Shown here one piece after another: positions 321 through 19,956 of a stretch of DNA of 20,083 nucleotides. Source of the DNA: Deltaproteobacteria bacterium (lineage in GTDB: Bacteria; Myxococcota_A; Polyangia; Polyangiales; Houyiibacteriaceae); contig JAXMNT010000079.1 of assembly GCA_034670305.1 (NCBI GenBank), positions 1-20,083 of the forward strand, in the 5' to 3' direction. Numbering within the stretch: the first letter of the stretch is position 1; the number at the start of each line of letters is the position of its first letter. Position numbers and translations under genes: made by a program. The notes beneath the pieces were generated by a model. That model was not told the origin of the DNA, searched no databases, and worked only from the letters and a program-made list of their open reading frames with translations.

Positions 321-1817
321 TCAGCTGCGCCGGCGTCGGTCCGCGGTCCGCCAACCGGCAGGAGGCGGCTCGGCGAACGGGAACATCGGATCGGTGAACG
401 GCACTTGGGCGCACGCTTCGAGATCCGTCGCGCCTCGGGTTCGCACCGGGATCGCCGAACGCACGTACGGCGCGAAGCCGACCATGAAGTGGAAGAAGCT
501 CTTCACCACCACGATGTCGGCGTCGCGCATGCGCAGCCCGAGCGCGGTATAGAAGCTCGGCCGCAACGTGTAGGGAATGCCGTCGGTGACGACGAGCTGC
601 ACCGACCCGAGATCCAGCCGCACCGCGCGACCGAACGCCCCGAGGTCCGCCCTCGCCCGCAAGTGTCCCTGGATCCGGAGCGGCACGTTGGTCTGCGGAT
701 CCAACCGTCCTCCCACCGTCCGGTCGACGGTGGATCCGAGCGGCGCGTCCCAGAGCGCCTCGACGACGGAGTCGTCTCGAATCGGGACGAACGAGACCAT
801 GTCCTCCACCCGCATCAGCGCTTCGAGCAGCGCCGTGTTCTCACCCGGTGCGCCGGCACCCACCACGTCGGACACATCGGAGAAGAACACACATCCGGTC
901 TTGCGCGCCCACCACCTCCGGCGTGCGACGTCGATCGCCTCGGCCGGTTCCAAGAAGCGTGGCGCGGGTTCGGCGCGGATCGCCCACGCCCGATCGGCGA
1001 CCTCGTCCGCCAACTGCTCGGCGAGCGCTTGGTCGCCGTCTGTGGTGACATGTACCGACCAGCCGAGGTCCTTCGAATCGCTGAAGGGATGCACCGTGAA
1101 GAGGTTCGCGCGCAACACGCGACCATCTCGTTCAAGCCCCTTGAGGTACTGCTTGATCTGTCGCATCGGTGCGAGGAAATCGACGTTCGCGCCCCCGCCA
1201 ATCGCGATCGGCAAGCTGCGCCAGGCGCTCGTCGGGCGAATCTCGCCTCGAATGATCTTCGGCAACAGACGACCCACTTGAAACCCGACGTGCGGAAGAT
1301 CCCGGTGCGGGTTGGTGCGGTACCCGACGACGAGATCGGCCGGGTCGGCTTTCGCTGGGGTCAGCTGCGCGTGCATGTCGTAGGTGATCGCGAGCGGCAC
1401 GTTCGGCGCGATCGCCCGGACGCGGCGCAGCAGCTCCTCTTCCGGCTCCGGGTACCGTCCCTCCGCCCGAATGGAGCCATGCAGCGCCAGGTAGATCCCA
1501 TCGAGCGGCATCGCCCGTTCGAGTCGGCCGGTGAGTTCTTCGAGAAACGTCTCCGCGCACTCGGCCGACATCGGCCCAGACGGGAGCGCCCACGCGCTGA
1601 GCAGCGGCACCCGCTCGACCCCGCGAGGCGTTGCGGCGCGAAACCCGCTCAGCTCCGCGATGGGCGACAGGCCGGGAACCTCGTTGCCGAGCGGGTGGGC
1701 GATCTCTTCGACCGCGGCGCCCTCGTGCAAATGAAACCGCTCGAAGTCCGCCCACGTCGTCTTCACCGGCGAGAAGGAGTTGGTCTCGGTCATCAGACGG
1801 GCGTAGGCGATTCTCAT
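321..1817 (-). CDS. M81 family metallopeptidase (MlrC-like)
   Basis: 498 aa with N-terminal [27 protein letters not shown], a DVSDVVGAG motif and C-terminal DIVVVKS, all typical of MlrC/M81. Confidence 0.9.
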
Positions 1818-1850
1818 GGCCCGCTCATTCTGACACCGAGTGCCAGTTCG

Positions 1851-3011
1851 TCAAGTCGGCTGGGCGCCAAGCAGCGGGTACAGGTCGCGCCGCACCACCC
1901 GCGGACTGCGTATGAGTGCTTCCAGCACGAAGGGCCGAGTGCCGGGGTCGGCGATGAGCGAGATGTGCGAGCGCGCCGGAGTCGGGATCCACCACAAGGA
2001 GTCCGGCAAGAGCCCCGGCAACGAAGCCAAGGTGTGTTCGTCGAGGCTGCCATCTCCCGCGGCGTGGGTGCGCTCGTCGTCGGAGTCGCAACACGTCGGC
2101 AACACGACCGGCGTCTGCACCACCACCCGCCGGGCGGTCTGGCGATCGCGCGCGGCGATCACCACGTCCTCGGCACTGGCCGCCACGTTTTCGATGCGTC
2201 GATGCAGCCCCTCGGCCTCGGCAAGGCGCTCGGCGAGTCTCGGTTCGTCGGCGAGTGCAAGGCCGAGCGCCCGCCAGGTCGCCGTGTCGTAGATCGAACA
2301 CGTCGCGGCTTGGCCGGACGGCGTCACGAAGAGGGAATCGTCCGGGTGGGGCAGCAGATGAAACGCGCCCCCCAAAGACGCCACTTCGCGCGGCGTGTGG
2401 TGCCGGCTCCGAGGCAGGAACGAGAACCCAGCTTGAAGGTGCGAGAAGCAGAGGTACGCGCCGCGCTGGGGGGCGGCCAGGTAGACCGCGCGCCGAACCG
2501 AGCGCCGCGTGCCCAGCCACTCGAGTTCACGTGCGAGGTGGAGCCGCAGCAAGACGCCGCCGCCGCTGATGGCGAGCACGTCCACCGCGTCGTCCGATGC
2601 GCCCTGCACACGGCGGATGGTCTGCTCGAGCGCGTCCGCCCCTGCGAATGCACCGGCCCGCCAATCGTAGGCCACCCCAAACAGCGTCTCCCCGCGGCGG
2701 TAGCCACCGATCTGCTCGAGGTAGCGGAGCAAGCCCCCGAACACATCGTGTTGCCAAACACCCGGCACGACGTCGAACCCCTCCAGCAGACCATCCGGTT
2801 GCAGCGGCGTGGCTTCGAAGAAGTCGCTGCCCGCGAAGAGCCGGCGGCTGTCCCCCCACACGCGCCGCCCCGCGGGATCGCGGAGCACACTGCCGAACGG
2901 GCCAGGCACGACCACCAGGGGCGGCCGCTTCGTCGTCGCGGCGCGTTCCCGAAGGAGCCGGCTGCGCAGCGAAAGACGGGACGCGCGCTCCCGCAACCGG
3001 TTCAGGAACAC
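1851..3011 (-). CDS. Alpha/beta hydrolase of the LCAT/PGAP1/lipase-like acyltransferase type
   Basis: Oxyanion region PLVVVPGPFGS, YDWR motif, nucleophile elbow DVLAISGGG, LAAPQRG, GDGSL and a C-terminal His (RSHISL). The start is uncertain (GTG 3011 or 3023). Confidence 0.8.
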   Translation of the reverse strand: MFLNRLRERASRLSLRSRLLRERAATTKRPPLVVVPGPFGSVLRDPAGRRVWGDSRRLFAGSDFFEATPLQPDGLLEGFDVVPGVWQHDVFGGLLRYLEQIGGYRRGETLFGVAYDWRAGAFAGADALEQTIRRVQGASDDAVDVLAISGGGVLLRLHLARELEWLGTRRSVRRAVYLAAPQRGAYLCFSHLQAGFSFLPRSRHHTPREVASLGGAFHLLPHPDDSLFVTPSGQAATCSIYDTATWRALGLALADEPRLAERLAEAEGLHRRIENVAASAEDVVIAARDRQTARRVVVQTPVVLPTCCDSDDERTHAAGDGSLDEHTLASLPGLLPDSLWWIPTPARSHISLIADPGTRPFVLEALIRSPRVVRRDLYPLLGAQPT

Positions 3012-3042
3012 CGCGTCACCCACGCATCGATCGACCGCGGCG

Positions 3043-4635
3043 TCACAGCTTCGTCTTGGCCCACACGTCGAAGATCGGACGCGGCACGAGCGCCGCAAAC
3101 CGGCTGCTCAACGAACCATGGAGAGGAAACCGAACCACCGGTGCGCCCCGCTCGACGCCGGCGACGAACGCGCGCACCGCTCGGTCCACCGGTTGAATGA
3201 ACGGCATCTCGTCGCAGCACTTCGACTCCGTCAGGCCACTCTCCACGCAGCCCGGTTCGATGAGGGTCAGCCCGATACCGAGTCGTGCGGCATCCGCGCG
3301 CAGCGCATCCGCCAACGCGCGGAGCGCCGCTTTGCTGGCCGCGTAGGGCCCATGCTTCGGATACCCGCGGTCCGCGGCCTGCGCCCCAGTGATCGCGATC
3401 CGAGGCGTGCCCGACTTCGGCATCGCACGCATCCACGCGAGCACCGGGTCGAGGTAGTTCGTCACGCCGAGGTAGTTGGTCGTCATCACGTTGGCCGCGG
3501 ACTCCGCGCGAAAGCCCGCCGCCGTCCAGCGATGGTCCCGCTCCAAAGCGAGCGCATCTTCGCCGCGCACACCGTACCCGCCGGCGTTCAGGTACGCCCG
3601 GTCGAGCCGCGGCCAGCTCGACCGCAACGTCGAGACCACCTCGCGTGCGGCGTCCGCGTCGCGGACATCCGCGGGAAGCACGCGTACCTCACGCGCCCCG
3701 TGCGCGAGACAACGCCGCGCGGTCTCTTCGAGTTCCTCCGATCGGCGCGCCACCAGCGCCAGCTTGGCCCCGGTGAGTGCGTACTGCCGGGCGACCTCTG
3801 CCCCGATGCCACTGCTCGCACCCGTGACCAACACATGCAGCGCCGTGTCGTCCGCGCTGCGCTGGGTGAAGTTGCGTTGCAGGAGCGCGGAGGGACCGAA
3901 GTAGAGCACTGCGTCCTTCACGTTCTCCGACAGGCGTCGCTGGTGACTCATCGTCGGTTTCGTCGCGTAGCTGAGTGAGAGCACCAGTCGCCGCTCCCCT
4001 TTTCCGAGCGGCGACACCGCGTGCCAGACCTTGGAGCCGCAGAAGATCACCGCGCCGCCGGGCGTGGTCTGCAACGAGAGCGCTTGGTTCGCGCGCGACG
4101 GATCGTCCTTGTGGAGTTTCGCCAGAAAACGTTGAGACGAGTCGTCCACGATCGACACGATCATCGTGTAGGAAGTGCCTTCTTCGCAGCCACACGTGTC
4201 GTAGTGGTACTGCATCCCATCGCCGCGTTTCGTGTACACGTACGCGGCGCACGCGTGGTCGTCTTCGGGGTGTTTCAGGTACATCGGCGCACCGACCAGA
4301 TCGCTCATCCAGTCGAGAAACACTTGGCTCTCGTAGAGCGCGACCACGGTGGGCGCCTTCTTCTGCAACGCGCGCCAGCCGATGTGTCCCGCCTTCCGCA
4401 CGAACGGAAGTTTGCTGCGATGCACCTTCAGCGTAGGCAGCGTGAGCTCGCTGCGAAGTCTGGCGAGCATCGCGGGTTCGACGAAGTCCGGCACGAACTC
4501 GAACTCGTTCTCCGCCGCGTATCGGCGGCGGATGCCTTCTTCGTCGAGTGCGCCAAAACTCCGACGGAGCGACGCGTCCACCCACGCTCGCGTAGACGGT
4601 TCGGACGAGGACTCGGTTTCGATCACGGCGGCCAT
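3043..4635 (-). CDS. Fusion of an N-terminal 2OG-Fe(II) oxygenase and a C-terminal short-chain dehydrogenase/reductase
   Basis: The N-terminal half has the HYD...WHAV...RRLVLSLSY facial-triad and 2OG-binding pattern. The C-terminal half has VTGASSGIG, LNAG and YAASK. One uninterrupted ORF; ATG at 4635 lies 4 bp after the upstream stop. Confidence 0.85.
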   Translation of the reverse strand: MAAVIETESSSEPSTRAWVDASLRRSFGALDEEGIRRRYAAENEFEFVPDFVEPAMLARLRSELTLPTLKVHRSKLPFVRKAGHIGWRALQKKAPTVVALYESQVFLDWMSDLVGAPMYLKHPEDDHACAAYVYTKRGDGMQYHYDTCGCEEGTSYTMIVSIVDDSSQRFLAKLHKDDPSRANQALSLQTTPGGAVIFCGSKVWHAVSPLGKGERRLVLSLSYATKPTMSHQRRLSENVKDAVLYFGPSALLQRNFTQRSADDTALHVLVTGASSGIGAEVARQYALTGAKLALVARRSEELEETARRCLAHGAREVRVLPADVRDADAAREVVSTLRSSWPRLDRAYLNAGGYGVRGEDALALERDHRWTAAGFRAESAANVMTTNYLGVTNYLDPVLAWMRAMPKSGTPRIAITGAQAADRGYPKHGPYAASKAALRALADALRADAARLGIGLTLIEPGCVESGLTESKCCDEMPFIQPVDRAVRAFVAGVERGAPVVRFPLHGSLSSRFAALVPRPIFDVWAKTKL

Positions 4636-4639
4636 GCGG

Positions 4640-5698
4640 TCACGCTTTCGCAAAGTCGCGGGTGAGCTCCGCGAACGAACGGGGTCGGGGCGGGAAGCCG
4701 GTCATGGCGTCGACGAACCCTCGACAGGAGGTCAGGCAATCGCCGCAATGGCTGAGTTCGTGGCTGTGGAGTCGCTCTTCGACGAGCGACCAGGGTTCTC
4801 GCACCAGGTTGCCCGAACGAAGATGAAGCTTCTCGATGCAAGGAGACACGTCGCCGAGGTGATCGATGTTGAAGAACCGCTCCCCCGCCCAACAACGACG
4901 GGGCGTCTCTCCGCGCAAGAACGGATCGATGCCTTCGAGGTAGTGCGAGAAGCTGATGAAGTGCGGGTGGCGCGCCTTGAGTTCGAGCAGCCGCGCACCG
5001 GTGCCGATTGGTGGCAACGACTTGCCGCCCTCCGCCCGCCCCAGACCTTCGCGCGAGAGCAACGTGACCTGGTGTCCGACCCCGAGCGCTTTCGAGACCT
5101 CGAGCAAGCGCGGCAAGTCGCGGTGGTTGTCGTGCATCACGACGGACATCAAGAACACCTGCCGAGCGCCCGAGGGTGCGGTCGCCCGCAAGATCTCGGC
5201 GGCCCGCAGCGCGGCTTCGAAGGTCCCCGGTTTGCCGCGGTGCGCGTCGTGTACCGCGGGGTCGGCGTAGTCGACCGAGATCCCAATAGAGTCGAGGCCC
5301 GCGTCCCAGAGCCGGCGCGCTCGGTCGTCGGTGACCCGCCAACCGTTGGTGAACAGGATGGGGTGGTGGTGCTGCGCGAACGACTCGACGATGTCGAAGA
5401 TGTCGTTGCGGAGAAGCGGTTCGCCTCCCTCCAGACTCACGATCAAGGAACCGGCCGCGGCCAGCTTGTTCGCGATGGTCGCGAAGTCCGCGGTGGTCAG
5501 CCCGTGATCTCGGTGGGCCGGGTTCTCCCAGAACGAGCAGAACCCGCAGCTGAGGTTGCAGCGGTTGCTCACCTGGACGATGCAGTGAACCGGCCGACCC
5601 GAGACGAGCCCCAGCGTGAAGCGCCCGGCTTTGCTCGAAGTCCGCGCCGCGTTTCGAAGAGACCTCGCGGCGGTCCGAAGCGTCTCCGCCGGCTTCAC
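4640..5698 (-). CDS. Radical SAM protein with a C-terminal SPASM/twitch-like domain
   Basis: CNLSCGFC (CxxxCxxC), GGEP and FTNG, then C-terminal CWAG...GDVSPC...CGDCLTSC. The GTG start at 5698 overlaps the aminotransferase stop (GTGA). Confidence 0.88.
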   Translation of the reverse strand: MKPAETLRTAARSLRNAARTSSKAGRFTLGLVSGRPVHCIVQVSNRCNLSCGFCSFWENPAHRDHGLTTADFATIANKLAAAGSLIVSLEGGEPLLRNDIFDIVESFAQHHHPILFTNGWRVTDDRARRLWDAGLDSIGISVDYADPAVHDAHRGKPGTFEAALRAAEILRATAPSGARQVFLMSVVMHDNHRDLPRLLEVSKALGVGHQVTLLSREGLGRAEGGKSLPPIGTGARLLELKARHPHFISFSHYLEGIDPFLRGETPRRCWAGERFFNIDHLGDVSPCIEKLHLRSGNLVREPWSLVEERLHSHELSHCGDCLTSCRGFVDAMTGFPPRPRSFAELTRDFAKA

Positions 5699-7047
5699 GA
5701 CTTCGGTCCCAGCGCCGAGCGCGCGAGGTCCCACGCGGCGCGACCCAGGGTGCGCGGGACCGACCGGATGCGGGTCGCGAGCACGCGTTCCATCGCCGCG
5801 AGGAACCCATCGATCTGTTCGAGCGCAATGGTGAGCGGTGGTTCGACCCGCACCACCGAGGGATCCAGCGTGCAGACCTGCGTGACGTACCCGGCTTCGA
5901 GCAGGCCGATCACCAGTTGTTGTGCGACCAGCGCCTTGGCCAACTCCGGCAGCGGCACCCGCACTTCGATGCCCCACAGGAGCCCCCGGCCCCGCACCGC
6001 GTGTATGGACGCGTGTTTCGCGGCCAACGACCGAAGCCCCGCCTCCAGGTGAGCCCCCTTGCGACGTACCATCGCCGGCGCATCGAGCGCGTCGAGCGTC
6101 CACAGCGTCGAAAGCGCCGCCGCACATGCCAGCGGCCCGCCCCGGTAGGTGGCGCAGTGCAGCTCATGATCGGCGAGCGACCCGTAGGCGGCCGCCCAGA
6201 GTTTCTTCGAAGTCACGTACGCCCCGATGGGCATCGCGCCACCGGACAACGCCTTCGCCAGCACGAGCACGTCCGGCACCACGCCTTCGTCTTCGAGCGC
6301 GAACATCGGACCGGTTCGCGCGAGCCCGGTCTGCACTTCGTCCAGGATGAGCACCGTGCCGTAGCGCGCGCACAACCGCTTCGCCTGCGCGAGGTAGTTC
6401 GGCGGCGGAAGCCGCACGCCGCCTTCGGCTTGAATCGGTTCGAGCACCACGGCGGCCACATCGCGTCGCCGGAGCCGGACCTCGAGCGCGCCGAGATCAC
6501 CGAACGGGATCTCGCTGGCCTCGAGCAACGTGCCGAACTTCTTCTTGCGACCATCGCTCGTCACCGAGAGCGCACCGAATGTGCTCCCGTGGTAGCCGCG
6601 CTCCGCATAGACGAACGCGTCGCGGTGGGTGACGGCGCGCGCCAGCTTCAAGGCGCCATCGACCGCTTCGCTCCCCGAGGATCCAAAAAAACTCACCTCG
6701 AGCGGGTCCGGCAAGCGGTCCGCGAGTTCGCGGGCGAGCGCCGCGGGCAGTGCCTCGGGCGCCATCAATACGAAACTCGGCGTCTTCGCTTGGCGCACGG
6801 TGTCCATGGCTTGCCAGACCTCAGGGGCGTGGTGGCCGAGCGGCACGCTCCCGTAGCCCGCGAGCATGTCGGTGTACGCGTTCCCATCCGCGTCGTAGAG
6901 GGTGCAGCCTTCGCCCCGCACGAACTGACGTTTGAATCCCATCAGACCGAGCGCCTCGACCATCTTCGGGTTGAGGTGCGCCGCCGTCTCCTGCTCCACG
7001 TCGGTCTGGGCGGCGCCGAGGATCGCGTCGATGCGTTCGGAGATCAT
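5695..7047 (-). CDS. Class III PLP-dependent aminotransferase (ornithine/putrescine/HpnO-like subgroup)
   Basis: 450 aa with SGSEAVD, GYHG, EPIQAEGG, DEVQTGLARTG and LAKALSGG (PLP Lys). Confidence 0.92.
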   Translation of the reverse strand: MISERIDAILGAAQTDVEQETAAHLNPKMVEALGLMGFKRQFVRGEGCTLYDADGNAYTDMLAGYGSVPLGHHAPEVWQAMDTVRQAKTPSFVLMAPEALPAALARELADRLPDPLEVSFFGSSGSEAVDGALKLARAVTHRDAFVYAERGYHGSTFGALSVTSDGRKKKFGTLLEASEIPFGDLGALEVRLRRRDVAAVVLEPIQAEGGVRLPPPNYLAQAKRLCARYGTVLILDEVQTGLARTGPMFALEDEGVVPDVLVLAKALSGGAMPIGAYVTSKKLWAAAYGSLADHELHCATYRGGPLACAAALSTLWTLDALDAPAMVRRKGAHLEAGLRSLAAKHASIHAVRGRGLLWGIEVRVPLPELAKALVAQQLVIGLLEAGYVTQVCTLDPSVVRVEPPLTIALEQIDGFLAAMERVLATRIRSVPRTLGRAAWDLARSALGPKS

Positions 7048-7490
7048 GGCGCACGCTCCGCGGAGGTCGGCTTCGACGCGAGCTGCGCCGCGACCACCCG
7101 CGCGAAGGTGAGCACGGAGAACAGCCGAGGGATCTCGCGCGGCCGAAGGCCCGCTTCGATCCGCTGTGTGGCTTCCGGCAAGAGCGACCGCAGCCGCTCG
7201 AGCCCAGCGTCCGACACGACCCCATCGGGCGCGAACTCCTCGTCCCGCATGCCGCCCCGAGCAGCCTGCTCCAGCGCACCGCGGGTGATCTCGACGTCGA
7301 ACCGATCTTCCAGCTCGAACACGATGTCGAGGAAGTCGAGCGACTCGGCGCCGAGTTCGTCCACCAGGTTGTGCTGCAACTCGACCGCGTCGAGTGACTG
7401 GCCGAGCGCTTTCGCGATCACCTCCCGCACGCCGAGTGCGAGATCGGCATCCACCTGCCCCGCCGCCACTGCGACCAACGCATCGTTCAT
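7044..7490 (-). CDS. Acyl carrier protein, oversized (148 aa) with an internal/C-terminal insertion
   Basis: Phosphopantetheine site DELGAESLDFLDIVFELEDRFDVEI. The ATG at 7490 overlaps the nitroreductase stop (ATGA). Confidence 0.9.
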   Translation of the reverse strand: MNDALVAVAAGQVDADLALGVREVIAKALGQSLDAVELQHNLVDELGAESLDFLDIVFELEDRFDVEITRGALEQAARGGMRDEEFAPDGVVSDAGLERLRSLLPEATQRIEAGLRPREIPRLFSVLTFARVVAAQLASKPTSAERAP

Positions 7491-8185
7491 GGCTTCTCCC
7501 ACCCGATCCATCGGGTCACCTTCTCCGCCGACCGACGCGGCGGAGCGATGGGCGCCTCGTCCGGCCATCCGATCGCGATCGCGCCAAGCATCTCGAACGG
7601 CGGTCGAATCTCAAGCAGCTGTTCGATTGCGGGTCGCGCGATCATCGGCCCCGCCATCCAGGTCGCCCCCAGACCTTCGGCCCGTGCTTGCAGCAAGAGC
7701 GCCATCACACTGGCGGCGACCCCGCATCGATCCGGAAGCATGTCGCCTGGCAGACTGTAGGTGGACGGGTCTGCTCCTGCCGAGGACAGGAAGCGGGCCA
7801 CCAAGTCCGCGTGGGTCCGCACCTGCGGCACGACGACCACCTCGGCCGAGTCGAGCGGCTCGTGAAAGAAGTCTCCGTAGGCGCCCCATTCGGCCGCGTG
7901 CCGTCCCGTCGCGATCGTTTGGTCGAGCCGCTCAGTGGCTTCCCGGACGCGATGCACCAACGCGTCTTTCGTGGCGCCGCGCACGACGTCAAAACGCCAA
8001 GGCTGGCGGTTCGTACTCGAAGGCGCGCTGATCGCCGCATCCAGAAGCCGTTCGACGAGGGTCCGCGGCACGGCGCGGCGCTGAAACCGGCGAACGCTCC
8101 GACGTCGACGCAACCACTCGAGGTGACTGGGCCCGTCGAACGGAGGCTGGCTCTCCAGCTCGAGGGTGGGCGGCGAGGGCTTCAC
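7487..8185 (-). CDS. Nitroreductase-family flavoprotein
   Basis: RRRSVRRF, APSSTNRQPWRF, LLLQARAEGLGATWM and IAIGWP motifs. Confidence 0.92.
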   Translation of the reverse strand: MKPSPPTLELESQPPFDGPSHLEWLRRRRSVRRFQRRAVPRTLVERLLDAAISAPSSTNRQPWRFDVVRGATKDALVHRVREATERLDQTIATGRHAAEWGAYGDFFHEPLDSAEVVVVPQVRTHADLVARFLSSAGADPSTYSLPGDMLPDRCGVAASVMALLLQARAEGLGATWMAGPMIARPAIEQLLEIRPPFEMLGAIAIGWPDEAPIAPPRRSAEKVTRWIGWEKP

Positions 8186-8946: not shown

Positions 8947-10163
8947 CGGCTGGTCCCGAGCAGCACCGACGCGTTCTGTCCCCCGAACCCGAACGCATTG
9001 CAGAGCACCCGCCGCAGCGGTGTCTCTTGCGGCGCCTGCACCAGATTCAGTGGACCGATCTCGTGATCGACGGTCTCGAGCCCCGCGGTGCCTGGGACGA
9101 GCCCTTCGCGAAGCGCGAGCAGACACGCGGCGATTTCGATCGCGCCACTCGCCGCCATGGCGTGGCCGATGGCCCCCTTGATGGACGACACCAACGCCGC
9201 CTCGCCCACCGCCCGACGGATGGCCGTGGCCTCGGCCACATCGTTGAGTGGTGTGCCGGTGCCGTGTGCGTTGACGTAGTCGACCGAGGACCCGTCGTGA
9301 TCGCGCAACGCAACGCGCATCGCGGCCTCGGCGTAGCGGCCCTCGGGGTGGGGCGCGCTCGGCCGGTAGGCGTCCTGGGTGACGCCGCCCCCGAGGACAT
9401 GGGCCCACACGGTCGCGCCGCGGGCGCGCGCCGAGCGCTCGGACTCGACCAAGAACATCGCGGCGCCCTCCCCCATCACGAGCCCATCGCGGCGGGCATC
9501 GAACGGACGGCACACGCCGGACGCGGAGAGTGTGCCGAGACGCAGCATGCCGCCGAGTCCCATCGGGTCGATCATGGAATCCGCTGCGCCACACAGGACG
9601 CGTTCGGCGCGACCGGACCGAACCCAGCGCGCGGCACGCAAGAGCGCGATCACACCACCCGCGCAGGCATTCGAGGACGCGAACGCGGGGCCTTCGTGGC
9701 CGAGGGCCTCGCATACGGCGCGCACCGGGGCGTCCACGCTCCCTCGGAGAAGAAGCGGTGGCGTGGCACCGGCGGCACGCTCGAAGTCGACTCCGGTTCC
9801 GTCCCAGAGCGGGTCGAAGGCCGGCAGCATCGCGCGCTCCACGCCACACGCGATGAGGATGGCGTCGTGGGCGGCGAGCGCGGTCGGGCCGGGCGCCGAA
9901 CCCGACGTCGCGTCCGCATCCAGCATCGAATCCGGCGACGATGCCGATGCAAGACACTCGCGCGCCGCGGAGAGGGCGAAGTCGATCCGGCGGTCGGGAC
10001 CTGGGGATCCGTCGGGGACCTCCGCGACGCAGGGTACGCCGAGCGCTTCGTTCAGCGGTCCGGATCGGGTCGCCACCCGGTGCGCGCGCAAGCCGTCCTC
10101 CAGCACCGCGAGACCGGATCCAAACGCGCTGACGACCCCCACGCCGGTGACGACGACGTTCAT
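8943..10163 (-). CDS. Beta-ketoacyl-ACP synthase (FabF/KS-alpha-like), catalytic triad intact
   Basis: VVVTGVGVVS, SNACAGG (Cys), NAHGTGT (His), KGAIGHAM (His) and NAFGFGG. The ATG at 10163 overlaps the upstream stop. Confidence 0.93.
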   Translation of the reverse strand: MNVVVTGVGVVSAFGSGLAVLEDGLRAHRVATRSGPLNEALGVPCVAEVPDGSPGPDRRIDFALSAARECLASASSPDSMLDADATSGSAPGPTALAAHDAILIACGVERAMLPAFDPLWDGTGVDFERAAGATPPLLLRGSVDAPVRAVCEALGHEGPAFASSNACAGGVIALLRAARWVRSGRAERVLCGAADSMIDPMGLGGMLRLGTLSASGVCRPFDARRDGLVMGEGAAMFLVESERSARARGATVWAHVLGGGVTQDAYRPSAPHPEGRYAEAAMRVALRDHDGSSVDYVNAHGTGTPLNDVAEATAIRRAVGEAALVSSIKGAIGHAMAASGAIEIAACLLALREGLVPGTAGLETVDHEIGPLNLVQAPQETPLRRVLCNAFGFGGQNASVLLGTSR

Positions 10164-11152
10164 CGGAGCCGCTCGATCCGCACGTGGCCCCACGCGCCCG
10201 ACGCCGCGTCCCGGGTTCGAATGGTGGCGACGCCGGAGACGTCGAGGCGCGCCAGCGCGAGACACCACGCGAGGGCAGGCGACGCCGCGAGCGTCGCACC
10301 GAACACAGCCTGCGCGTCCACGTCGGCGACGCGCGGCGGAAGGGTGGACCGGGGTGCGTCGACCACGAACAGATCATCCGGAGGAACCGGCTCGGATCCA
10401 TCGCACAGGCGCGCCTCGAGGAGCCGGCCGATCGGCCGCTCCGCCACCGAACGGAGCCGGAGGAACGCAGCGCCCTCCGACAGCCAGCCGAGGTCGGCCA
10501 CCGAGGCCTCGCGCGTCCGTTCGATTCGCGTGATCGGATGGTGTCCGGTGTCCGCGCCACCGATGAACGCCTCGGGTGCTCCGTCTTCGAGCGCGTCGCA
10601 CGCGTCGGCGAGCGCCATCACCGTGCCGAGCCCGCGCGAGAAGGTCGCCTCCCCCGGTCCATGCACGCTGGCTTCGATCGCGGCGTGGCAGAGCGTGAAG
10701 CTCGGAAGGCTCTGGAAGGTGCGGAGCGGATTGAACGACCGGAGTCCACGTCGACGGAAAGCCGGGAGCGAGAAGGCGCCGTCCACCCGGCTGGAGCCGA
10801 CCACCCGATCGAGTTCGGCGCGTTCCACCCCGGAGGCCCCGACCCCGACGAAAAGCGCGGCGCTTGGATCTGCGGGCTCGGCTTGCAACATGAGCCGAAT
10901 CGCAGCGACCGACAGCGCCGCCGCACGACTCACTGCTTTGGCACCGCGGCCGTCCACGCGCAGGTCCTCTGGCAGGTCGATGGGTGCGGGGTCTCGCGCG
11001 ATCGGCAGCGCCCTCGCGAGTCGTCCGAGCGCGACGGTGTTGTCCCTGAGAATGTGGTCTACCGGATCCGCCGCGACCCGGGCCGGTCCCGCGCTCCCGT
11101 CGCAGAAGATGGCTGGCACCGAGACCCCCGAAGCCGAGACGATGAAGGTCAC
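10160..11152 (-). CDS. Ketosynthase-like non-catalytic partner (chain-length-factor-like), 330 aa
   Basis: KS-like segments (AALFVGVG, NPLRTFQSLP, MALADACDAL, IGGAD, SEGAAFL, FGATLAAS). TFSRGLG sits where the catalytic Cys would be and there is no HGT motif. The GTG at 11152 overlaps the KS stop. Confidence 0.78.
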   Translation of the reverse strand: MTFIVSASGVSVPAIFCDGSAGPARVAADPVDHILRDNTVALGRLARALPIARDPAPIDLPEDLRVDGRGAKAVSRAAALSVAAIRLMLQAEPADPSAALFVGVGASGVERAELDRVVGSSRVDGAFSLPAFRRRGLRSFNPLRTFQSLPSFTLCHAAIEASVHGPGEATFSRGLGTVMALADACDALEDGAPEAFIGGADTGHHPITRIERTREASVADLGWLSEGAAFLRLRSVAERPIGRLLEARLCDGSEPVPPDDLFVVDAPRSTLPPRVADVDAQAVFGATLAASPALAWCLALARLDVSGVATIRTRDAASGAWGHVRIERLR

Positions 11153-12375
11153 GACACCCGCTCCACCCGCACCGAGACGTTGCCGCCCCCGAAGCCGAAC
11201 GCGTTCACGAGGGCGGCCTGCACGGATGCGTCCCGCGTCTCGCGCAGATGCCATCCCGGACAACCCGCGTCGGCTTGCTCGAATCCAACGGTCGGGAACT
11301 GTCGCCCGCGCGCGGTTCCCCCAGACGACACCGCTTCGATGGCGCAGAGCAATCCAACGGCGCCCGCCCCTGCGATCCAATGACCGAGCGCACCCTTCAC
11401 CGAACCGATCGGCACATCGTCCCCGAAGAGCCGATAGAGCGCCCGCGCTTCGGACGAGTCCCCTTTCGCGGTGGCCGTGCCATGGGCTTGCACGTACTGA
11501 ACAGGCTGCCCTCCAAGCGCGGTGCGCATCGTGGCTTCGGCCACCACTCCGTCTGGGTCGGGATCGGTCAGGTGGTGGGCGTCGAGGCCGCGGCCCCACC
11601 CGGCCACGCGGACAGGAGTCGATGGCCCACGCGTGCCCCCGAGCACGACGCACGCCGCGCCTTCCCCGAGCACGAACCCATCGCGGCGACGGTCGAAGGG
11701 GCGCGCGACTCCGGAGGGACTCAGCGCGCCGAGCCGATCGAATGCACCGAAGAGGAGCGGGTCGAGCCCGGCCCCCACCCCCCCACAGATCGCAGCGTCG
11801 CATTCCCCGGCCGCGATCGATCGAACGCCTTCCACCACCGCGGCGAGTCCACTGGCGCACGCCATCGCGGGCGCGCCGACCGGCCCATCGAACCCGAAGC
11901 GGGCGGCCACGGCGGCCGCCGGTCGAAGTTCGTCTGAGTGTTGCGCGCGCTGCATCACCGCTTCGCCCTCGCGCGCGAACGCCTCGTGGTCGAACGTGCG
12001 GCCGCCGCCCGCAGCTCGGCTGAGGTCGAATGCGAACGGGTAGCGCGCGAACCCGGACTCCGCGCCGATGAACACCCCTACCCGCTGGGTATCGAGCCCC
12101 GCTTGCGCCCACGCTTCTGTGGCCGCGAGCCACGTCATCGCCACCCGGGGTTCCAGCATGGCGCCGTCCTCGGGCGGACGTTCGCTGTTTCTGCGCTGCA
12201 CTTCCGCGGAGACTGTCTTGCTGCACACCGGCGCCCCGGTCTGACAGTCGAACCCTCGGACATCGAAGCGCTCGACCCGCGACACACCCGTGGCCCCGGC
12301 GGCGAGCCGGTCGGCGGTCGTCGTCCAGTCCGGACCGAGCGCCGACACACACCCGACCCCGCGAACCCAGGTCAC
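11149..12375 (-). CDS. Beta-ketoacyl-ACP synthase (FabF/KS-alpha-like), catalytic triad intact
   Basis: GVGCVSALG, MACASG (Cys), PFDRRRDGFVLGEG, QAHGTAT, KGALGHW and NAFGFGG. The GTG at 12375 overlaps the dehydratase stop. Confidence 0.92.
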   Translation of the reverse strand: MTWVRGVGCVSALGPDWTTTADRLAAGATGVSRVERFDVRGFDCQTGAPVCSKTVSAEVQRRNSERPPEDGAMLEPRVAMTWLAATEAWAQAGLDTQRVGVFIGAESGFARYPFAFDLSRAAGGGRTFDHEAFAREGEAVMQRAQHSDELRPAAAVAARFGFDGPVGAPAMACASGLAAVVEGVRSIAAGECDAAICGGVGAGLDPLLFGAFDRLGALSPSGVARPFDRRRDGFVLGEGAACVVLGGTRGPSTPVRVAGWGRGLDAHHLTDPDPDGVVAEATMRTALGGQPVQYVQAHGTATAKGDSSEARALYRLFGDDVPIGSVKGALGHWIAGAGAVGLLCAIEAVSSGGTARGRQFPTVGFEQADAGCPGWHLRETRDASVQAALVNAFGFGGGNVSVRVERVS

Positions 12376-12839
12376 CGCCCCGCGCGCTCCAGGCCGTGCA
12401 GCCAGACTTCTCGGCGGCGACGGTGGGCTTCGAGAAGCGCGTCCGCATGGCCAGTCTCGAACACGAACGTCAACGTGGCGCAGACGACCTCGACGCCGTC
12501 CACCTGCCCGCGGCAGACCACCCGGGCGCGCTCGGCGTTCCCTTTGCCCGCCGCTTCCAGCACCAGTCGATCGCCCGGCCGGACGGGTGCGGAGAAACGC
12601 GCCGCGTCGACGCCGACCAGGACCGCCAACGCCGCCCGTTCGCCGCCCGCCGCAGCGGCGTCCTCTTCTGCGAGCAGTCCACTGAGTTGCGCGAGCGTCT
12701 CGATCAGGAGCGCGCCGGGATAGAGGGGCGCACCCACGAAGTGATCCGCGAAGACATCCTCGCTCGCGCTCACGCACTTGAGCCCCCGCGCGAAGCCGGG
12801 GCCGAGTTCTGTCACACGGTCGAGCAAGACGTATCGCAC
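12372..12839 (-). CDS. 3-hydroxyacyl-ACP dehydratase, FabZ-like hotdog fold
   Basis: LLDRV, KCVSASE, DHFVGAPLYPGALLIETLAQ (catalytic His/Glu) and RFSAPVRPGD. Confidence 0.92.
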   Translation of the reverse strand: MRYVLLDRVTELGPGFARGLKCVSASEDVFADHFVGAPLYPGALLIETLAQLSGLLAEEDAAAAGGERAALAVLVGVDAARFSAPVRPGDRLVLEAAGKGNAERARVVCRGQVDGVEVVCATLTFVFETGHADALLEAHRRRREVWLHGLERAGR

Positions 12840-12937
12840 GCAGCTTCTCTACTACACACCGCGACTTTGTGCGGGGGTTCGATGGGTCCGGGTCCTGCCT
12901 CTTCCGCGCCGGCCGGTTTCTCGGTACTCCTGCGCGC
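12840..12937. promoter_or_regulatory. Divergent promoter region of the two cluster operons
   Basis: 98-bp non-coding gap between head-to-head genes. No promoter boxes could be confidently identified. Confidence 0.45.
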
Positions 12938-14650
12938 ATGGACTGCTGCGAAACCGACGCGAGCCCGCGCCCCGACCGACCCCACACGTTTCTGCTGCAT
13001 GCCCTGTCGACATGCACCCACTGCGGAGAGACCCGCGAAGGGCGCGTGGTGCGGCGGGGGTCGACCATCCACACGCTCGTCTATTGCGCCGAGTGCAAGA
13101 AGCAGTCGGAGCACGACACCCACCCCGACGCGGATGCCTACTTGGCGGAGCTCGTCGCGCGCGCCCCATCCGAACCACAGGCCGAGGAGGTCGAGTTCAA
13201 ACGCACCACCTCCACCTGTCCCTCGTGTCTCGCGCTCGTCGAAGCCAAGGTGGTGATTCGCGACGGCCAGGTCTTCTTTCGCAAACACTGCACGGCCTGC
13301 GACGAGACCACCCAAGCGATGGTCTCCGAAGACGCGGACTACTACGTGAAGGCCTACACCTTCGCGGCCGCGGGGACCGAGCCACTCCACTTCGGCGCGC
13401 CGGTGGAGCACGGCTGCCCGACCGATTGCGGCACCTGCAACGACCACGAGCAGCACACCTGCCTTCCGATCATCGAGGTCACCGACCACTGCAACCTCGA
13501 GTGCCCGATCTGCATCGTGGACAACCAGTACTCCTGGCACATGCCGGTCGAAGAGTTCCGCACCATCATCGATCAGCTCGTGCGCGCCGAAGGCCAGCTG
13601 GAATCGGTCGCGATCAGCGGCGGCGAGCCGACCAGCCACCCGCAGATTCTCGACCTGCTCGAAGCCGCCGACAGGCCAGAGATCGGCCGGGTGTTTCTGA
13701 TCACCAACGGGCTCCGGCTCGGCAAGGACCGGGCGTTCGCGGAGGCGATCAAAGCGCGTGGAAGCTACGTCGGACTCCAACTGGATGGGTTCGACGCCGA
13801 GACCCACGAGATCGTGCGCGGCCGGGACCTGACCGCGGAGAAGGGGCGTGCGCTGGCGGTGCTCGAAGAACTCGACATCCCCACGCAGATCATCTTCGTC
13901 GCGGTGAAGGGCGTGAACGACCACCAGATCGGCGACGCGGTGAAGCTCTTCCTCGAGAAGGATTTCATCCTCTCCCTCAACTTCCAGCCGGTCGCCCACA
14001 CGGGCCAGGGCGGTGGCAAGTTCACCCACGACCCGATGGACCGGTTGACGATCCCCGGGGTCATCCGCGCGATGGAGGCGCAGTCCGACGGCGCGCTGCG
14101 CACCTCCGATTTCCATCCCCTGCCGTGCTCGCACCCGCAGTGCGTCTCGCTCACGTACTTGTTGCGGCTCGAGGACGGACGCCACGTGCCCTTCCCGCGT
14201 TTCGTCGACTACACGAAACACAGTGAGCTGCTTCGAAGCAGCGCGACCCTGCCGGCGACCTCGCAGATCCACGACGCGATGCTCGAGGTCATTCACGATG
14301 TGTTCGCGAACGAAGACGACGTAGAGGACGGCGAAGCGATCCTCGGCGCACTGCGGCAGAGCGTGAAGGCGATGTTCCCGACGCGGCCGATGACCGAGCG
14401 CGAGAAAGTGCGGATCGGCGAGGCCCACGCGAAGTCGATCTTCCTGCACGCCTACATGGACCGGCACGACTTCGACCTCGAGCGGCTCCGCAAGTGTTGC
14501 CACCACTACGCGCAGCCGGACGGCCGCGTGATGCCAGCCTGCGGGTTCAACATGTTCCACCGGGGCGCGGCCAAAGGCACCGGCACGACGCGAGCAACGT
14601 GGGCGAAAGATCCCTTCTCGGGCAAACCGCAGTTGCCGGTCGTCTCGTGA
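12938..14650 (+). CDS. Radical SAM protein of the tetraether synthase (Tes/GDGT-MAS, MJ0619-like) family with a tandem N-terminal rubredoxin-like module
   Basis: TTSTCPSC-x20-CTAC rubredoxin-like module, GCPTDCGTCNDH auxiliary-cluster motif, VTDHCNLECPIC radical SAM motif, SGGEPT, TNG, CSHPQC and C-terminal YMD..DFDLERLRKCCHHYAQPDGRVMPACGFN. This order matches my recollection of the Tes family. Confidence 0.88.
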   Translation: MDCCETDASPRPDRPHTFLLHALSTCTHCGETREGRVVRRGSTIHTLVYCAECKKQSEHDTHPDADAYLAELVARAPSEPQAEEVEFKRTTSTCPSCLALVEAKVVIRDGQVFFRKHCTACDETTQAMVSEDADYYVKAYTFAAAGTEPLHFGAPVEHGCPTDCGTCNDHEQHTCLPIIEVTDHCNLECPICIVDNQYSWHMPVEEFRTIIDQLVRAEGQLESVAISGGEPTSHPQILDLLEAADRPEIGRVFLITNGLRLGKDRAFAEAIKARGSYVGLQLDGFDAETHEIVRGRDLTAEKGRALAVLEELDIPTQIIFVAVKGVNDHQIGDAVKLFLEKDFILSLNFQPVAHTGQGGGKFTHDPMDRLTIPGVIRAMEAQSDGALRTSDFHPLPCSHPQCVSLTYLLRLEDGRHVPFPRFVDYTKHSELLRSSATLPATSQIHDAMLEVIHDVFANEDDVEDGEAILGALRQSVKAMFPTRPMTEREKVRIGEAHAKSIFLHAYMDRHDFDLERLRKCCHHYAQPDGRVMPACGFNMFHRGAAKGTGTTRATWAKDPFSGKPQLPVVS

Positions 14651-15387
14651 CGCTGCTGCAGGGCCGCATGGCGCTCGTGACCGGCGGGTCGCGCGGACTC
14701 GGTCGCGCGCTCTGTGAGGTCTTCGCGCGCGAGGGCGCCGACGTGGCGTTCAACTACGCGAGCGACGACGAGGGCGCGCTCGAGACCACGCGGCGCATCG
14801 AAGCGCACGACCAGAGGGCGTTTCCGAAGAAGGTCTCGGTGACCGATCGCGCGGGTCTGCGGGCGTGGGTGAAGGAACTGGAATCCAGCGATGTGGCGAT
14901 CGACATTCTCGTGAACAACGCGGGCATCGGGGAGGTGTTGCCACTCGCGCTGATGGAGGAGTCCGACTGGGACCAGATGATGAACGTGCACGTCAAAGGT
15001 GCGTTCTTGACGAGCCAAGCGGTGCTGCGCGGCATGATCCGCCGGCGCCGCGGGACCATTCTCAACGTCACCTCGCTCGCCGGCGTGCGCATGATGAAAG
15101 CGCCAGTGCATTACTGCACCGCCAAGGCCGCACTCCGTGGGTTCACCGAGTCCCTCGCGAAAGAGATCGGACACTACGGCATCACGGTGAACGCGATCGC
15201 CCCGGGACTGCTGGACGAAGGCGTCGGCGATCAGGTGCCGGCCGAGAAGCGCGCCGAGTACCTCACGTTCTGCGCGCTCGAGCGGCTCGGCACGAGCGCA
15301 GAAGTCGCGGAGACGGCGGCCTTCCTCGTCTCCTCGCGCAACACCTACATGAACGGCGCAACCGTGGTGCTCGACGGCGGCGTCTGA
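14647..15387 (+). CDS. fabG: 3-oxoacyl-ACP reductase (FabG-like SDR)
   Basis: VTGGSRGLG, LVNNAGI, VTS, YCTAK, VNAIAPG and LDGG. The GTG at 14647 overlaps the radical SAM stop (GTGA). Probably a cluster-dedicated paralog. Confidence 0.88.
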   Translation: MTLLQGRMALVTGGSRGLGRALCEVFAREGADVAFNYASDDEGALETTRRIEAHDQRAFPKKVSVTDRAGLRAWVKELESSDVAIDILVNNAGIGEVLPLALMEESDWDQMMNVHVKGAFLTSQAVLRGMIRRRRGTILNVTSLAGVRMMKAPVHYCTAKAALRGFTESLAKEIGHYGITVNAIAPGLLDEGVGDQVPAEKRAEYLTFCALERLGTSAEVAETAAFLVSSRNTYMNGATVVLDGGV

Positions 15388-15388
15388 G

Positions 15389-16258
15389 GTGCGTCGCGCC
15401 CTCCGGTTCGGGGTCTACCCAGCAAGCGTGGCGGCGGTGCTCTTCGGGACCCACCACCTCGTGCGCGCCGGCGTGCACCCGGCGATCGTGCTCGGCGTGG
15501 GCGGCCTGGTGTTCGTCGTCTTCCTGGCCTTCTTGGAACGCGTCGCGCCGTTCGAACCGACGTGGGCCGAAGCCCGCAACGACGTGCGCACGGACATCGC
15601 GCACGGCGTGCTGACGTGGAGTCTGATGCCCGCGCTGCTCGAGCCCTGGCTCGTGGCCGGCCTGGGAGCACTCGCCGCCCATCTCTCGAACCACGGGGCG
15701 CTCTGGCCGGCGACGATCCTGCCCGAACCGCTCGGGTGGCTCGAACTCCCCACCCAGGTGGTGCTCGCAGCGCTCGTGAGTGAGTTCGGAACCTACGGTC
15801 TGCACCGCGCCATGCACCGCGTCCCCTGGCTGTGGCGGCTGCATCGCGTGCACCACTCCCCGTCCCGCTTGTACTGGCTCAACGGGGCTCGGTTTCATCC
15901 GCTGGACCTCGCGCTCTCCCTTGTCGTGCAGCTGTCTCCGCTGGTGCTGCTCGGGACCCCATCTCACGTGATCCTCCTCTTCACCGCCTGGACCAGCATG
16001 AACGCGTTCTTTCGACACTCGAATGTGCACGTCTCGCTCGGCTGGCTGAACTACGTCGTCTCCATGGCGGAGGTGCACCGCGTGCACCACGAACCGTCTC
16101 GCCGTGCCTACAACTACGGCGCCCTGCTCTCCGTTTGGGATCTCGTGTTCCGAACCTTCAGGTTTCCGGCGGAGCCCGTGCGTGCGGTCGGTTTGCCGGA
16201 GACCGACCGCGTCAGTCCGACCTACCTCGGACAGCTCTGGGGTCCCTTCCAGCACTGA
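15389..16258 (+). CDS. Membrane di-iron fatty acid hydroxylase / sterol desaturase family protein
   Basis: Hydrophobic segments plus His boxes HRAMH, HRVHH, FRHSN and HRVHH, and NYG...WDLVF. Confidence 0.9.
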   Translation: MRRALRFGVYPASVAAVLFGTHHLVRAGVHPAIVLGVGGLVFVVFLAFLERVAPFEPTWAEARNDVRTDIAHGVLTWSLMPALLEPWLVAGLGALAAHLSNHGALWPATILPEPLGWLELPTQVVLAALVSEFGTYGLHRAMHRVPWLWRLHRVHHSPSRLYWLNGARFHPLDLALSLVVQLSPLVLLGTPSHVILLFTAWTSMNAFFRHSNVHVSLGWLNYVVSMAEVHRVHHEPSRRAYNYGALLSVWDLVFRTFRFPAEPVRAVGLPETDRVSPTYLGQLWGPFQH

Positions 16259-16310: not shown

Positions 16311-18149
<1,839 letters not shown>

Positions 18150-19586: not shown

Positions 19587-19664
19587 CGAGAGGAACCTAG
19601 ATTCGGACGCGACCAAGGGCAGTGCGGCGCCACACGTGACCGCCCTCACGGTATTTATTGGCAA

Positions 19665-19791: not shown

Positions 19792-19900
19792 GATGCACTC
19801 CCGCCACCTCTATGACGCGCTTGGGGAGTGCACCAGTTGCTCGCCCTGCAGGCTGCGCAGGTGCACGGGCGGAGATGCCTGACTCGCTGGCGCTGAGCGC

Positions 19901-19944: not shown

Positions 19945-19956
19945 TTCTTTCTTATC

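Follow-up and report, generated by a model that had tools for sequence, protein, structure and literature searches.

What does a relative of the archaeal tetraether synthase (Tes; GDGT-MAS) do when it is encoded within a bacterial gene cluster for carrier-bound chain assembly? This question is raised by contig JAXMNT010000079.1 of a Deltaproteobacteria bacterium, in which 15 genes at positions 321–16258 (g01–g15) include a Tes homolog, here named Tes1 (g13). The window analyzed is the whole 20,083-bp contig (G+C ~69%) of a 7.9-Mb, 105-contig genome. The locus is classed as a type II fatty acid synthase (FAS)/polyketide synthase (PKS)-like cluster in which a Tes-type tailoring enzyme is a new and integral part. 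Its conserved core consists of a dehydratase (DH), two ketosynthases (KS1 and KS2), two KS-like partners without the catalytic triad (chain length factors, CLF1 and CLF2), a nitroreductase, an acyl carrier protein (ACP), and a second FabG (FabG2), which almost all related loci carry between CLF2 and the nitroreductase. This set faces Tes1 and its reductase FabG1. The core genes stay linked in both Myxococcota and Massilia; which tailoring genes accompany them depends on the lineage. The window, probably part of a Myxococcota genome, is one member of a conserved biosynthetic gene cluster family. Members of this family would probably assemble a chain on the ACP, modify it with Tes1, and yield a specialized lipid or polyketide.

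The evidence for this linkage comes from two samples of genomes. Clade-specific motifs retrieved 259 stretches from a species-representative genome collection, 229 of which encode a Tes1 relative, and the best 80 were examined. These 80 relatives belong to Polyangiaceae, Haliangiales, Kofleriaceae, Archangiaceae, Myxococcaceae, Massilia/Telluria, other Burkholderiales, and a few metagenome-assembled genomes labeled otherwise. The window proteins were searched by tblastn against the 49 loci in which the sequence upstream of Tes1 extends for 9 kb or more; 33 loci are fully flanked, with at least 9 kb on both sides. Blind calling and clustering of ORFs in the 80 loci were noisy (shadow ORFs; merged aminotransferase and Tes families) and were used only for choosing accessory genes for Pfam analysis. 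KS1 and KS2 are each present in 48 of the 49 loci, DH in 46, CLF2 and the nitroreductase in 43 each, and ACP in 39, and the six core genes occur all together in 37. The gene order in the related loci is that of the window, and in 74 of 75 loci (all except L080) FabG1 immediately follows Tes1 on the same strand. Among 401 evenly sampled genomes of the window's phylum, 61 hold a Tes-like gene (E ≤ 1e-20). Only G000, G390, and G147 have one at ≥63% identity, and five more have one at 45–48%. The CLF1 profile scored 364.6, 283.8, and 214.3 bits in the three Tes1 genomes, on the same contigs, and ≤116.5 bits elsewhere in the sample. The repeated co-occurrence of the Tes homolog with a KS/CLF/ACP set, raised in a preliminary description of this DNA, is thus borne out in both the 49 loci and the 401 genomes.

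Tes1 (12938–14650, plus strand) is a Zn-ribbon radical S-adenosylmethionine (SAM) protein of 570 aa that starts at ATG 12938. Its ORF also opens at GTG 12869, from which the residue numbers used here are counted, and it contains no in-frame stop. A selenocysteine at the in-frame TGA of the ortholog in genome G147 was considered and rejected; that TGA is an ordinary stop near the C-terminus. Tes1 matches GDGT-MAS (MJ0619; NF045702) with an E value of 6.6e-62 against 7TOL, in two stretches spanning the chain. Its predicted structure matches 7TOM in Foldseek with an E value of 1.3e-25 and a target-normalized template modeling (TM) score of 0.71 over 498 columns; across the GDGT-MAS structures, the TM score is 0.70–0.71 over 490–498 columns. 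The next fold match, MoaA, reaches a TM score of 0.49 over 270 columns and covers the radical SAM core only. The predicted local distance difference test (pLDDT) value of the model is 70.7 and is low near the cluster-binding loops. Residues were mapped via the cofactor residues given in PMC9433317 (this and the other articles cited here were covered in part) and compared among 79 Tes1 orthologs, 43 Tes2/3-type paralogs, five sister sequences, and nine solitary homologs. In the rubredoxin-type site (C9, C12, C33, and H36 in GDGT-MAS), C117, C120, and C141 are kept, and the fourth ligand, His in GDGT-MAS, is Cys144 in 79/79 Tes1 sequences. The [4Fe-4S]N ligands C183, C187, C190, and H193 (C73, C77, C80, and His in GDGT-MAS) are likewise found in 79/79, and the radical SAM CX3CX2C motif (C208, C212, and C215), which aligns with that of 7TOL, has Cys in 79/79. 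The equivalent of Tyr459, a residue close to the substrate terminus in GDGT-MAS, is Tyr547 in a CCHHY motif, present in 79/79 Tes1 and lost in 41/43 Tes2/3. C420, C425, C543, C544, and C558 are invariant in Tes1 and are candidate ligands of the C-terminal auxiliary cluster. Tes1 shares with GDGT-MAS the four-domain architecture, the rubredoxin-like, [4Fe-4S]N, and radical SAM sites, C-terminal Cys residues, and the Tyr459 equivalent. It differs in an extra N-terminal Cys4 module, which occurs in 77/79 Tes1 and in Tes1 alone and looks in the model like a second copy of the β-rich rubredoxin module. It also differs in its host, an aerobic-type bacterium, and in its genetic context, a carrier-protein assembly line instead of isoprenoid ether lipid genes. 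Tes1 is a true member of the GDGT-MAS/Tes superfamily with the whole architecture, not a Tes ortholog or equivalog.

Apart from FabG1, the genes of this assembly line are encoded on the opposite strand. KS1 (g11, 11149–12375, minus strand) and KS2 (g09, 8943–10163, minus strand) are FabF-like ketosynthases according to PDB and NCBIfam searches, with the catalytic residues Cys173, His298, and His332 in KS1 and Cys167, His300, and His334 in KS2. CLF1 (g10 or unkB, 10160–11152, minus strand; 330 aa) overlaps KS1 by GTGA. Sequence searches of Pfam, NCBIfam, and PDB found no match for it, and a fold search was used because the PDB sequence search gave nothing. The best Foldseek matches of its AlphaFold (AF2) model, built from a 29-sequence alignment with a pLDDT of 75, are CLF chains: AntE (6SMP_F, E 6e-11), the actinorhodin CLF (1TQY_B), and the ishigamide CLF (6KXF_B). 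CLF2 (g08 or unkA, 8182–8946, minus strand; 254 aa) overlaps KS2 by ATGA and the next gene by GTGA. It matches KasB weakly (E 8e-4), and its full-length orthologs align end to end with KS2, yet lack the triad. Neither g08 nor g10 hit an NCBIfam model at E ≤ 0.001. The two KS and two noncatalytic KS partners first assigned from the reading frames are therefore real, given the triad kept in g09 and g11 and absent from g08 and g10, and the CLF fold of g10. The ACP (g06, 7044–7490, minus strand; 148 aa; Pfam PP-binding) has its Ser in an ESLD motif and a C-terminal extension of ~60 aa; the alignment reaches at least residue 133 in 43/43 loci with an ACP match. The radical SAM or KS–CLF partners could use this extension for docking. 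DH (g12, 12372–12839, minus strand; 155 aa) is a FabA/FabZ-like hot-dog dehydratase (Pfam FabA, 62.9 bits; NCBIfam FabZ, 85.4 bits, under the cut-off of 113). FabG1 (g14, 14647–15387, plus strand; 246 aa) is a short-chain dehydrogenase/reductase (SDR) of the 3-oxoacyl-ACP reductase type (Pfam adh_short, 173.6 bits; NCBIfam FabG, 209 bits, under the cut-off), in which Ser143, Tyr156, and Lys160 are invariant in alignment A3. The nitroreductase-family flavoprotein (g07, 7487–8185, minus strand; 232 aa; Pfam Nitroreductase, 89.5 bits) shows weak similarity to BluB and the C-terminal part of FbiB. Searches of Pfam and NCBIfam revealed no enoyl reductase (FabI/K/L/V-type or medium-chain dehydrogenase/reductase-type) among the 15 proteins, and no B12-binding or amine-oxidase/desaturase domain in any of them.

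The 15 genes lie in two divergent, closely coupled operons. Third-position GC and start-codon mapping place 12 genes on the minus strand (g01–g12, 321–12839) and three on the plus strand (g13–g15, 12938–16258). Start and stop codons overlap (ATGA or GTGA) at eight successive minus-strand junctions, from g12 through g04. On the plus strand, the GTG start of g14 (fabG) overlaps the TGA stop of g13 (GTGA), and g15 starts 1 base past the g14 stop. The preliminary description had proposed 15 tightly packed genes in two divergent operons, with the Tes homolog translationally coupled to fabG, and third-position GC, start mapping, and these overlaps uphold both points. Its functional labels were all reproduced by Pfam, NCBIfam, residue checks, and the fold search. 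As for its treatment of the 15 genes as one cluster, all of them are real, but only ~10 of the 15 are in the conserved cluster. The spacer between g12 and g13 (12840–12937, 98 bp) is the presumed promoter region; this assignment follows from position alone because no sigma-70-like promoter match was found there. Over the scan, promoters and terminators appeared at chance level, with one promoter-like site versus 0.9 expected and nine terminator-like sites versus 9.0 expected.

The association of Tes-like enzymes with such genes extends beyond Tes1. In 30 of the 80 loci, the cluster holds one or two further Tes-like paralogs (~490 aa, 33–37% identity; Zn ribbon and radical SAM by Pfam), usually each with its own FabG and aminotransferase, so that up to three Tes-like paralogs occur in one cluster. 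More distant Tes-like genes (33–48% identity; L097, L099, L103, L114, and L115) again stand beside FabG, aminotransferase, DH, KS, nitroreductase, and ACP genes. The module of a Tes-like gene and FabG, with or without an aminotransferase, therefore recurs in paralogous clades next to KS, DH, nitroreductase, and ACP. A further Tes-like clade (~30% identity; L106–L113 and L116, from nine additional genomes in the phylum) is solitary, with no counterpart of the window's genes in its surroundings, and Met occupies the Met439 position in five of its nine sequences. This clade is a better candidate than Tes1 for a Tes-like or branched glycerol dialkyl glycerol tetraether (brGDGT)-type role. A FastTree tree of 136 sequences, rooted by assumption on the solitary clade and built from sequences other than archaeal Tes and Mss, splits off the cluster-associated enzymes (branch value 99). 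Within them lie Tes1 (79 rows, 100), a five-row sister clade, Tes2, and Tes3. Seven rows from Betaproteobacteria (L042, L057, L058, L061, L073, L082, and L037; Massilia/Telluria/Burkholderiales) form one clade (98) nested among Myxococcota, and their clusters share the window's variant with rSAM2 and aminotransferase. Because this single clade is nested among Myxococcota, the tree, with its assumed root, suggests horizontal transfer of the whole cluster into Betaproteobacteria.

Some features of these relatives are recorded here as separate observations. In the sister clade (L097 = G059:C309:41536-46090, and L098–L101; 45–48% identity to Tes1), two to three tandem Tes-like genes precede two FabG genes; in L097, genes for DH, KS, nitroreductase, and ACP come next. 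A 4'-phosphopantetheinyl transferase (PPTase) gene directly follows FabG1 in eight loci of the Haliangiales/Kofleriaceae type (e.g., L028:12456-12977), where it is counted as a sign of a dedicated carrier; the window has none. Downstream of Tes1–FabG1, an arginase-family gene is found in Polyangium loci (L024:13846-15000) and a DyP-type peroxidase-like gene in Massilia loci (L061:15328-16770). The window's own family (f1) consists mostly of one genus (g2) with genomes of 3–5 Mb, 0/18 of which hold a Tes-like gene; the 7.9-Mb window genome is an outlier in its family.

Here, we propose a pathway for the cluster based on its gene content and residue conservation. Two KS–CLF heterodimers, together with a ketoreductase and a dehydratase, would build a chain on the dedicated long-form ACP. 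Because no enoyl reductase is encoded in the cluster, this chain would stay partly unsaturated (polyene-like) or oxygenated if neither the nitroreductase-type flavoprotein nor a borrowed FabI reduces it. The 5'-deoxyadenosyl radical of Tes1 would attack an unactivated carbon of the ACP-bound chain by hydrogen abstraction. Tes1 would then most likely form a C–C bond (cyclization or cross-link), possibly between the two KS–CLF stages, and FabG1 would probably reduce the carbonyl adjacent to the new bond. A division of labor, with one KS–CLF pair elongating the linear chain and the second elongating it after modification, would explain the two pairs. In the window's lineage, the SPASM-type radical SAM enzyme, the PigE-like aminotransferase, the 2-oxoglutarate (2OG) oxygenase–SDR fusion, and the membrane hydroxylase may aminate and hydroxylate the product, and an ACP-bound ketone is a possible substrate of the class III aminotransferase, by analogy with AmcC. 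The pathway would end in a specialized lipid or polyketide, not in a bulk membrane lipid. The patchy distribution in the 401-genome sample, the variable tailoring genes, and the nested Betaproteobacteria clade are signs of a specialized metabolite. As the enzyme is locked to a KS–CLF/ACP line, its context points to carrier-bound substrates and to specialized rather than membrane-spanning lipids. The chemistry named in the preliminary description (dimerization, macrocycle, or ring) is likewise putative.

Several observations weigh against this proposal. The cluster family is known from genes alone, as regards product, transcript, and enzyme activity. CLF1 reaches at least 40% coverage in just 34 of the 49 loci, in 12 of the 49 one or more of the six core genes went undetected at the thresholds applied, and in L085 no KS lies within 10 kb. 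Polyangium-type loci have no aminotransferase within 10 kb, and amination is therefore not a core step. In the window itself, CLF2 has 254 aa compared with ~380–420 aa in 48 orthologs (median near 395) and lacks the C-terminal thiolase half, and FabG2 is absent from the contig. As to Tes1, its score of 255.3 bits on the NCBIfam Tes model (NF045702) is below the cut-off of 450, and its 260.9 bits on TrsS (NF045646) are below the cut-off of 490. The Tes model exceeded its cut-off in 3 of 14 control genomes, and its genome-wide best in the window's genome was 196.9 bits. The superfamily offers no second characterized activity for calibration, TrsS being merely listed as a selenoprotein. The position of Met439, which in GDGT-MAS is the labile ligand of the reactive C-terminal [4Fe-4S]C cluster and is completely conserved among 1000 archaeal homologs (PMC9433317), is taken by His527, with His in 79/79 Tes1 and 42/43 Tes2/3. 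The alignment has a 2-residue gap at His527, which leaves the register good, if not certain. With Met439 replaced by His, the chemistry at the C-terminal cluster may differ. The earlier label of Tes homolog thus stands for superfamily and architecture (7TOL and 7TOM), whereas the missed NCBIfam cut-off and the Met439 to His exchange speak against a closer identity. A physical complex of Tes1 and FabG1 is at best hinted at by structure prediction. The score was 0.32 versus 0.00 for the best control, contacts were 100% concordant among three runs, and the partner pLDDT was 90. In calibration, the mark was reached by 58/80 solved complexes and 2/110 mismatched pairs, and scores ≤0.60 were held by just 7 of those 80 and by both mismatches that passed; a prediction of this kind is more often wrong than right.

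The main uncertainty concerns the reaction of Tes1, for which two explanations share the same gene linkage. In its most specific form, our proposal holds that Tes1-type enzymes perform Csp3–Csp3 or radical-to-alkene coupling on a carrier-bound chain between two KS–CLF stages, giving carbocyclic or cross-linked lipids of a new class. Clusters with two or three Tes-like paralogs would then build polycyclic products. In-line coupling of this kind is doubtful at present. Somewhat doubtful, too, is the main rival, a reaction other than C–C coupling, such as methylation, desaturation, C–S bond formation, or an oxidation or epimerization feeding FabG1 and the aminotransferase. Each module of Tes-like enzyme, SDR, and aminotransferase would then install a functional group at an unactivated carbon. 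The recurrence of the FabG/aminotransferase module agrees with this, and up to three Tes-like paralogs per cluster fit repeated tailoring better than a single coupling. The exchange of Met439 for His throughout Tes1 and nearly all Tes2/3, and the loss of Tyr459 from most of the latter, point in the same direction. So does the substrate–sulfur intermediate through which the GDGT-MAS reaction runs (PMC9433317). Divergence to methylation and desaturation has occurred in homologous radical SAM enzymes acting on archaeal lipids (10.1101/2025.10.20.683597), but these enzymes are of the B12 type, and Pfam and NCBIfam searches found no methyl-donor or B12 domain here. C–C coupling, for its part, is favored by the precedent that the sole characterized member of this architecture makes C–C bonds (PMC13459092, PMC9433317), and by Tyr459 and every mappable cluster ligand being kept in Tes1.

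Two other explanations differ from our proposal in the product or in the state of the locus. Tes1 might join the tails of two acyl chains into a diabolic acid-like diacid or brGDGT-type precursor of a membrane-spanning lipid, as a bacterial counterpart of archaeal Tes. Its whole-chain likeness to GDGT-MAS and the published hypothesis linking bacterial Tes homologs with brGDGT-type lipids (PMC8941075, PMC11868695) are consistent with this role. We consider it highly improbable, given that neither the window genes nor the conserved core showed a gene for a glycerolipid acyltransferase or for ether lipids, that the product would be tailored by an aminotransferase, a nitroreductase, and oxygenases, and that Met439 is not conserved in Tes1. 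Orthologs occur in just 3 of the 401 genomes and were apparently transferred into Massilia, a pattern that does not resemble a core membrane trait, and the solitary clade with Met in 5/9 sequences suits the role better. The membrane-spanning diacid is hence the least likely of the products named in the preliminary description, in view of the sporadic, seemingly mobile cluster, its variable tailoring, and the lack of glycerolipid genes. The copy in the window could also be a decaying, nonfunctional remnant of the cluster family, which is unlikely. The truncated CLF2 fits decay, and so does the absence of FabG2 from the contig, a gene found in 26/26 of the listed layouts that include the KS operon. 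Its relatives elsewhere in the genome are general SDR/FabG paralogs of ≤43% identity, the best beside a fabF-like gene on C11, and the genome contains a single Tes-like gene and a single cluster copy. Against decay, all 15 reading frames are open with strong third-position GC, and the stop codon of the short CLF2 overlaps the following start cleanly (GTGA). The closest relatives, L009 and L010, likewise have a divergent, shortened, or degenerate C-terminus of CLF2, and FabG1, the SDR half of g03, or a housekeeping FabG could substitute for FabG2. Contigs from four sequencing runs cover 7000–9600 with 0 differences, and the odd CLF2 junction is therefore not a one-off assembly error; the runs come from one study, possibly the source of this DNA, and are not independent. 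The labels of the earlier gene list stand; the short g08 and the missing FabG2 had been overlooked. This copy may be impaired or altered, with an altered product or none, which is rated as possible and not as shown because all frames are open.

The proposed pathway, with its carrier-bound chain and Tes1, resembles several characterized or proposed systems in part. Reducing type II PKSs consist of KS–CLF, KR (ketoreductase), and DH (PMC10698177). Like those of ishigamide (Iga11–Iga12, 6KXD-F) and aryl polyenes, the window cluster has a KS with Cys-His-His and a triad-less KS-fold partner, has discrete ACP, KR, and DH, and encodes no enoyl reductase. Unlike them, it has two KS–CLF pairs, a long-form ACP, partners too divergent for Pfam and NCBIfam, and an integral nitroreductase and Tes-type radical SAM enzyme. 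Aryl polyene clusters typically hold adenylation, thioesterase, and glycosyl- or acyl-transfer genes, none of which was seen in the window cluster. In the cispentacin pathway, a motif-less KS partner serves as the cyclization factor, a class III transaminase acts on an ACP-bound ketone, and FabI is borrowed from the primary FAS (PMC10698177). The KS with a motif-less partner, the hot-dog enzyme, and the class III transaminase are shared with this cispentacin/coronafacic acid system (AmcB–AmcH). The similarity remains distant, with 185.9 (KS2) and 102.5 bits on the AmcF model versus a cut-off of 325 and 35.3 bits for DH on AmcE versus 140, and the window cluster has no adenylating loader; equivalogs of AmcF, AmcE, and AmcG were not found in it. 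The cispentacin pathway, for its part, has no radical SAM enzyme, a term that does not occur in PMC10698177. The anammox ladderane “Cluster I” (amxACP, amxFabZ, amxFabF2/amxFabFmut, and radical SAM), whose link to the product is still unproven (bioRxiv 10.64898/2026.05.19.726425), likewise combines an FAS-II-like KS/CLF-like heterodimer, a dedicated ACP, FabZ, and a radical SAM enzyme proposed to remodel or cyclize the chain. It differs in a cobalamin-dependent radical SAM enzyme and a phytoene desaturase homolog, neither of which was seen among the 15 proteins, and in phylum and lifestyle. Mss of Thermotoga and Thermoanaerobacter is, like Tes1, a bacterial radical SAM enzyme, and is reported to join fatty acid tails into diacids (review, PMC13459092). 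The literature covered does not describe it with a KS/ACP cluster. No report combining GDGT-MAS with an acyl carrier protein, and none describing a cluster of the window's type, was found in a literature search that left subscription journals mostly outside its reach. Within that same coverage, the earlier statement that this gene set has no characterized counterpart still holds.

The function of bacterial Tes relatives has been open since 2022, and the sole published idea is a role in brGDGT-type lipids (PMC8941075). The published work covered here treats bacterial Tes homologs just as candidates for brGDGT synthesis (PMC13459092, PMC8941075, PMC11868695). The present analysis delimits a large clade (no fewer than 229 relatives in genomes) in which the enzyme is locked to a dedicated KS–CLF/ACP line and its own reductase. 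Since the Tes1 clade probably does something else, metagenome counts of “Tes homologs” would overcount brGDGT producers. If in-line coupling on the ACP is true, bacterial Tes homologs would gain their first assigned function, and Tes-type chemistry would be seen for the first time on an acyl carrier protein. The cluster is present in the isolates Massilia frigida CCM 8695, M. aquatica CCM 8693, M. rubra CCM 8692, Massilia sp. TWP1-3-3, Polyangium fumosum DSM 14668, and P. jinanense SDU13. Culturable carriers therefore exist, and knock-out and lipidomics tests are feasible.

The remaining genes of the window are accessory or tailoring genes. rSAM2 (g04, 4640–5698, minus strand) is a second radical SAM protein with a CX3CX2C motif and a C-terminal Cys cluster (SPASM/twitch-like). 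It is found in 13 of the 49 loci and occupies the slot held in other lineages by a second Tes-like gene. Of the 33 fully flanked loci, 11 were counted with the rSAM2 type and 14 with extra Tes-like genes; one has both, and nine have neither. The class III (PigE-like) aminotransferase (g05, 5695–7047, minus strand; 450 aa; Pfam Aminotran_3, 283 bits) has the PigE aminotransferase domain as its best NCBIfam model (399 bits versus a cut-off of 850). A class III aminotransferase occurs upstream in 28/49 loci and anywhere in 20/33 fully flanked loci. The protein encoded by g15 (15389–16258, plus strand) belongs to the membrane di-iron fatty acid hydroxylase family (Pfam FA_hydroxylase, 106 bits; His boxes) and is OlsE-like but under the cut-off (148 versus 475 bits). 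A member of this family occurs in 6 of the 33 fully flanked loci, and g15 is a variable accessory gene. At the other end, g01 (321–1817, minus strand) encodes an M81/MlrC-like peptidase (Pfam DUF1485, 236 bits; MlrC_C, 96 bits) and has a counterpart in 0/49 loci. g02 (1851–3098, minus strand; start uncertain among 3098, 3023, and 3011) encodes an LCAT-like α/β hydrolase with a weak Pfam LCAT match (24.7 bits). It is found in 1/49 loci at ≥40% coverage, with a match also in L075, and is probably an accessory or neighboring gene. g03 (3043–4635, minus strand), found in 3/49 loci, encodes a HalD-type 2OG/Fe(II) oxygenase fused to a classical SDR. Its N-terminal half is assigned to the HalD type by Pfam (27.5 bits), an Atlas score of 0.97, and an HYD motif at 144–146; a phmmer search of this domain against PDB sequences gave chance-level matches only. 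These three genes (g01–g03) are lineage-specific and lie outside the conserved core.

The cluster ends at 16258, because the genes to its right are unrelated. A DnaK-type Hsp70 gene (16311–18149, minus strand) adjoins it and scores 678.9 bits on PRK00290, above the cut-off of that model and below that of TIGR02350. In two related loci (L017:1235-2758 and L086:1353-2825), an Hsp70 gene of 42% identity adjoins the cluster at the end where the ACP is encoded, and its position next to the cluster may be a coincidence or may reflect a dedicated chaperone paralog. Further right lies BoxB (benzoyl-CoA 2,3-epoxidase subunit B; 18162–19772, minus strand; 718.9 bits, above the cut-off), with a partial ORF (19810–20082, minus strand) upstream of it. 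Both belong to aerobic benzoate catabolism and bear no relation to the cluster.

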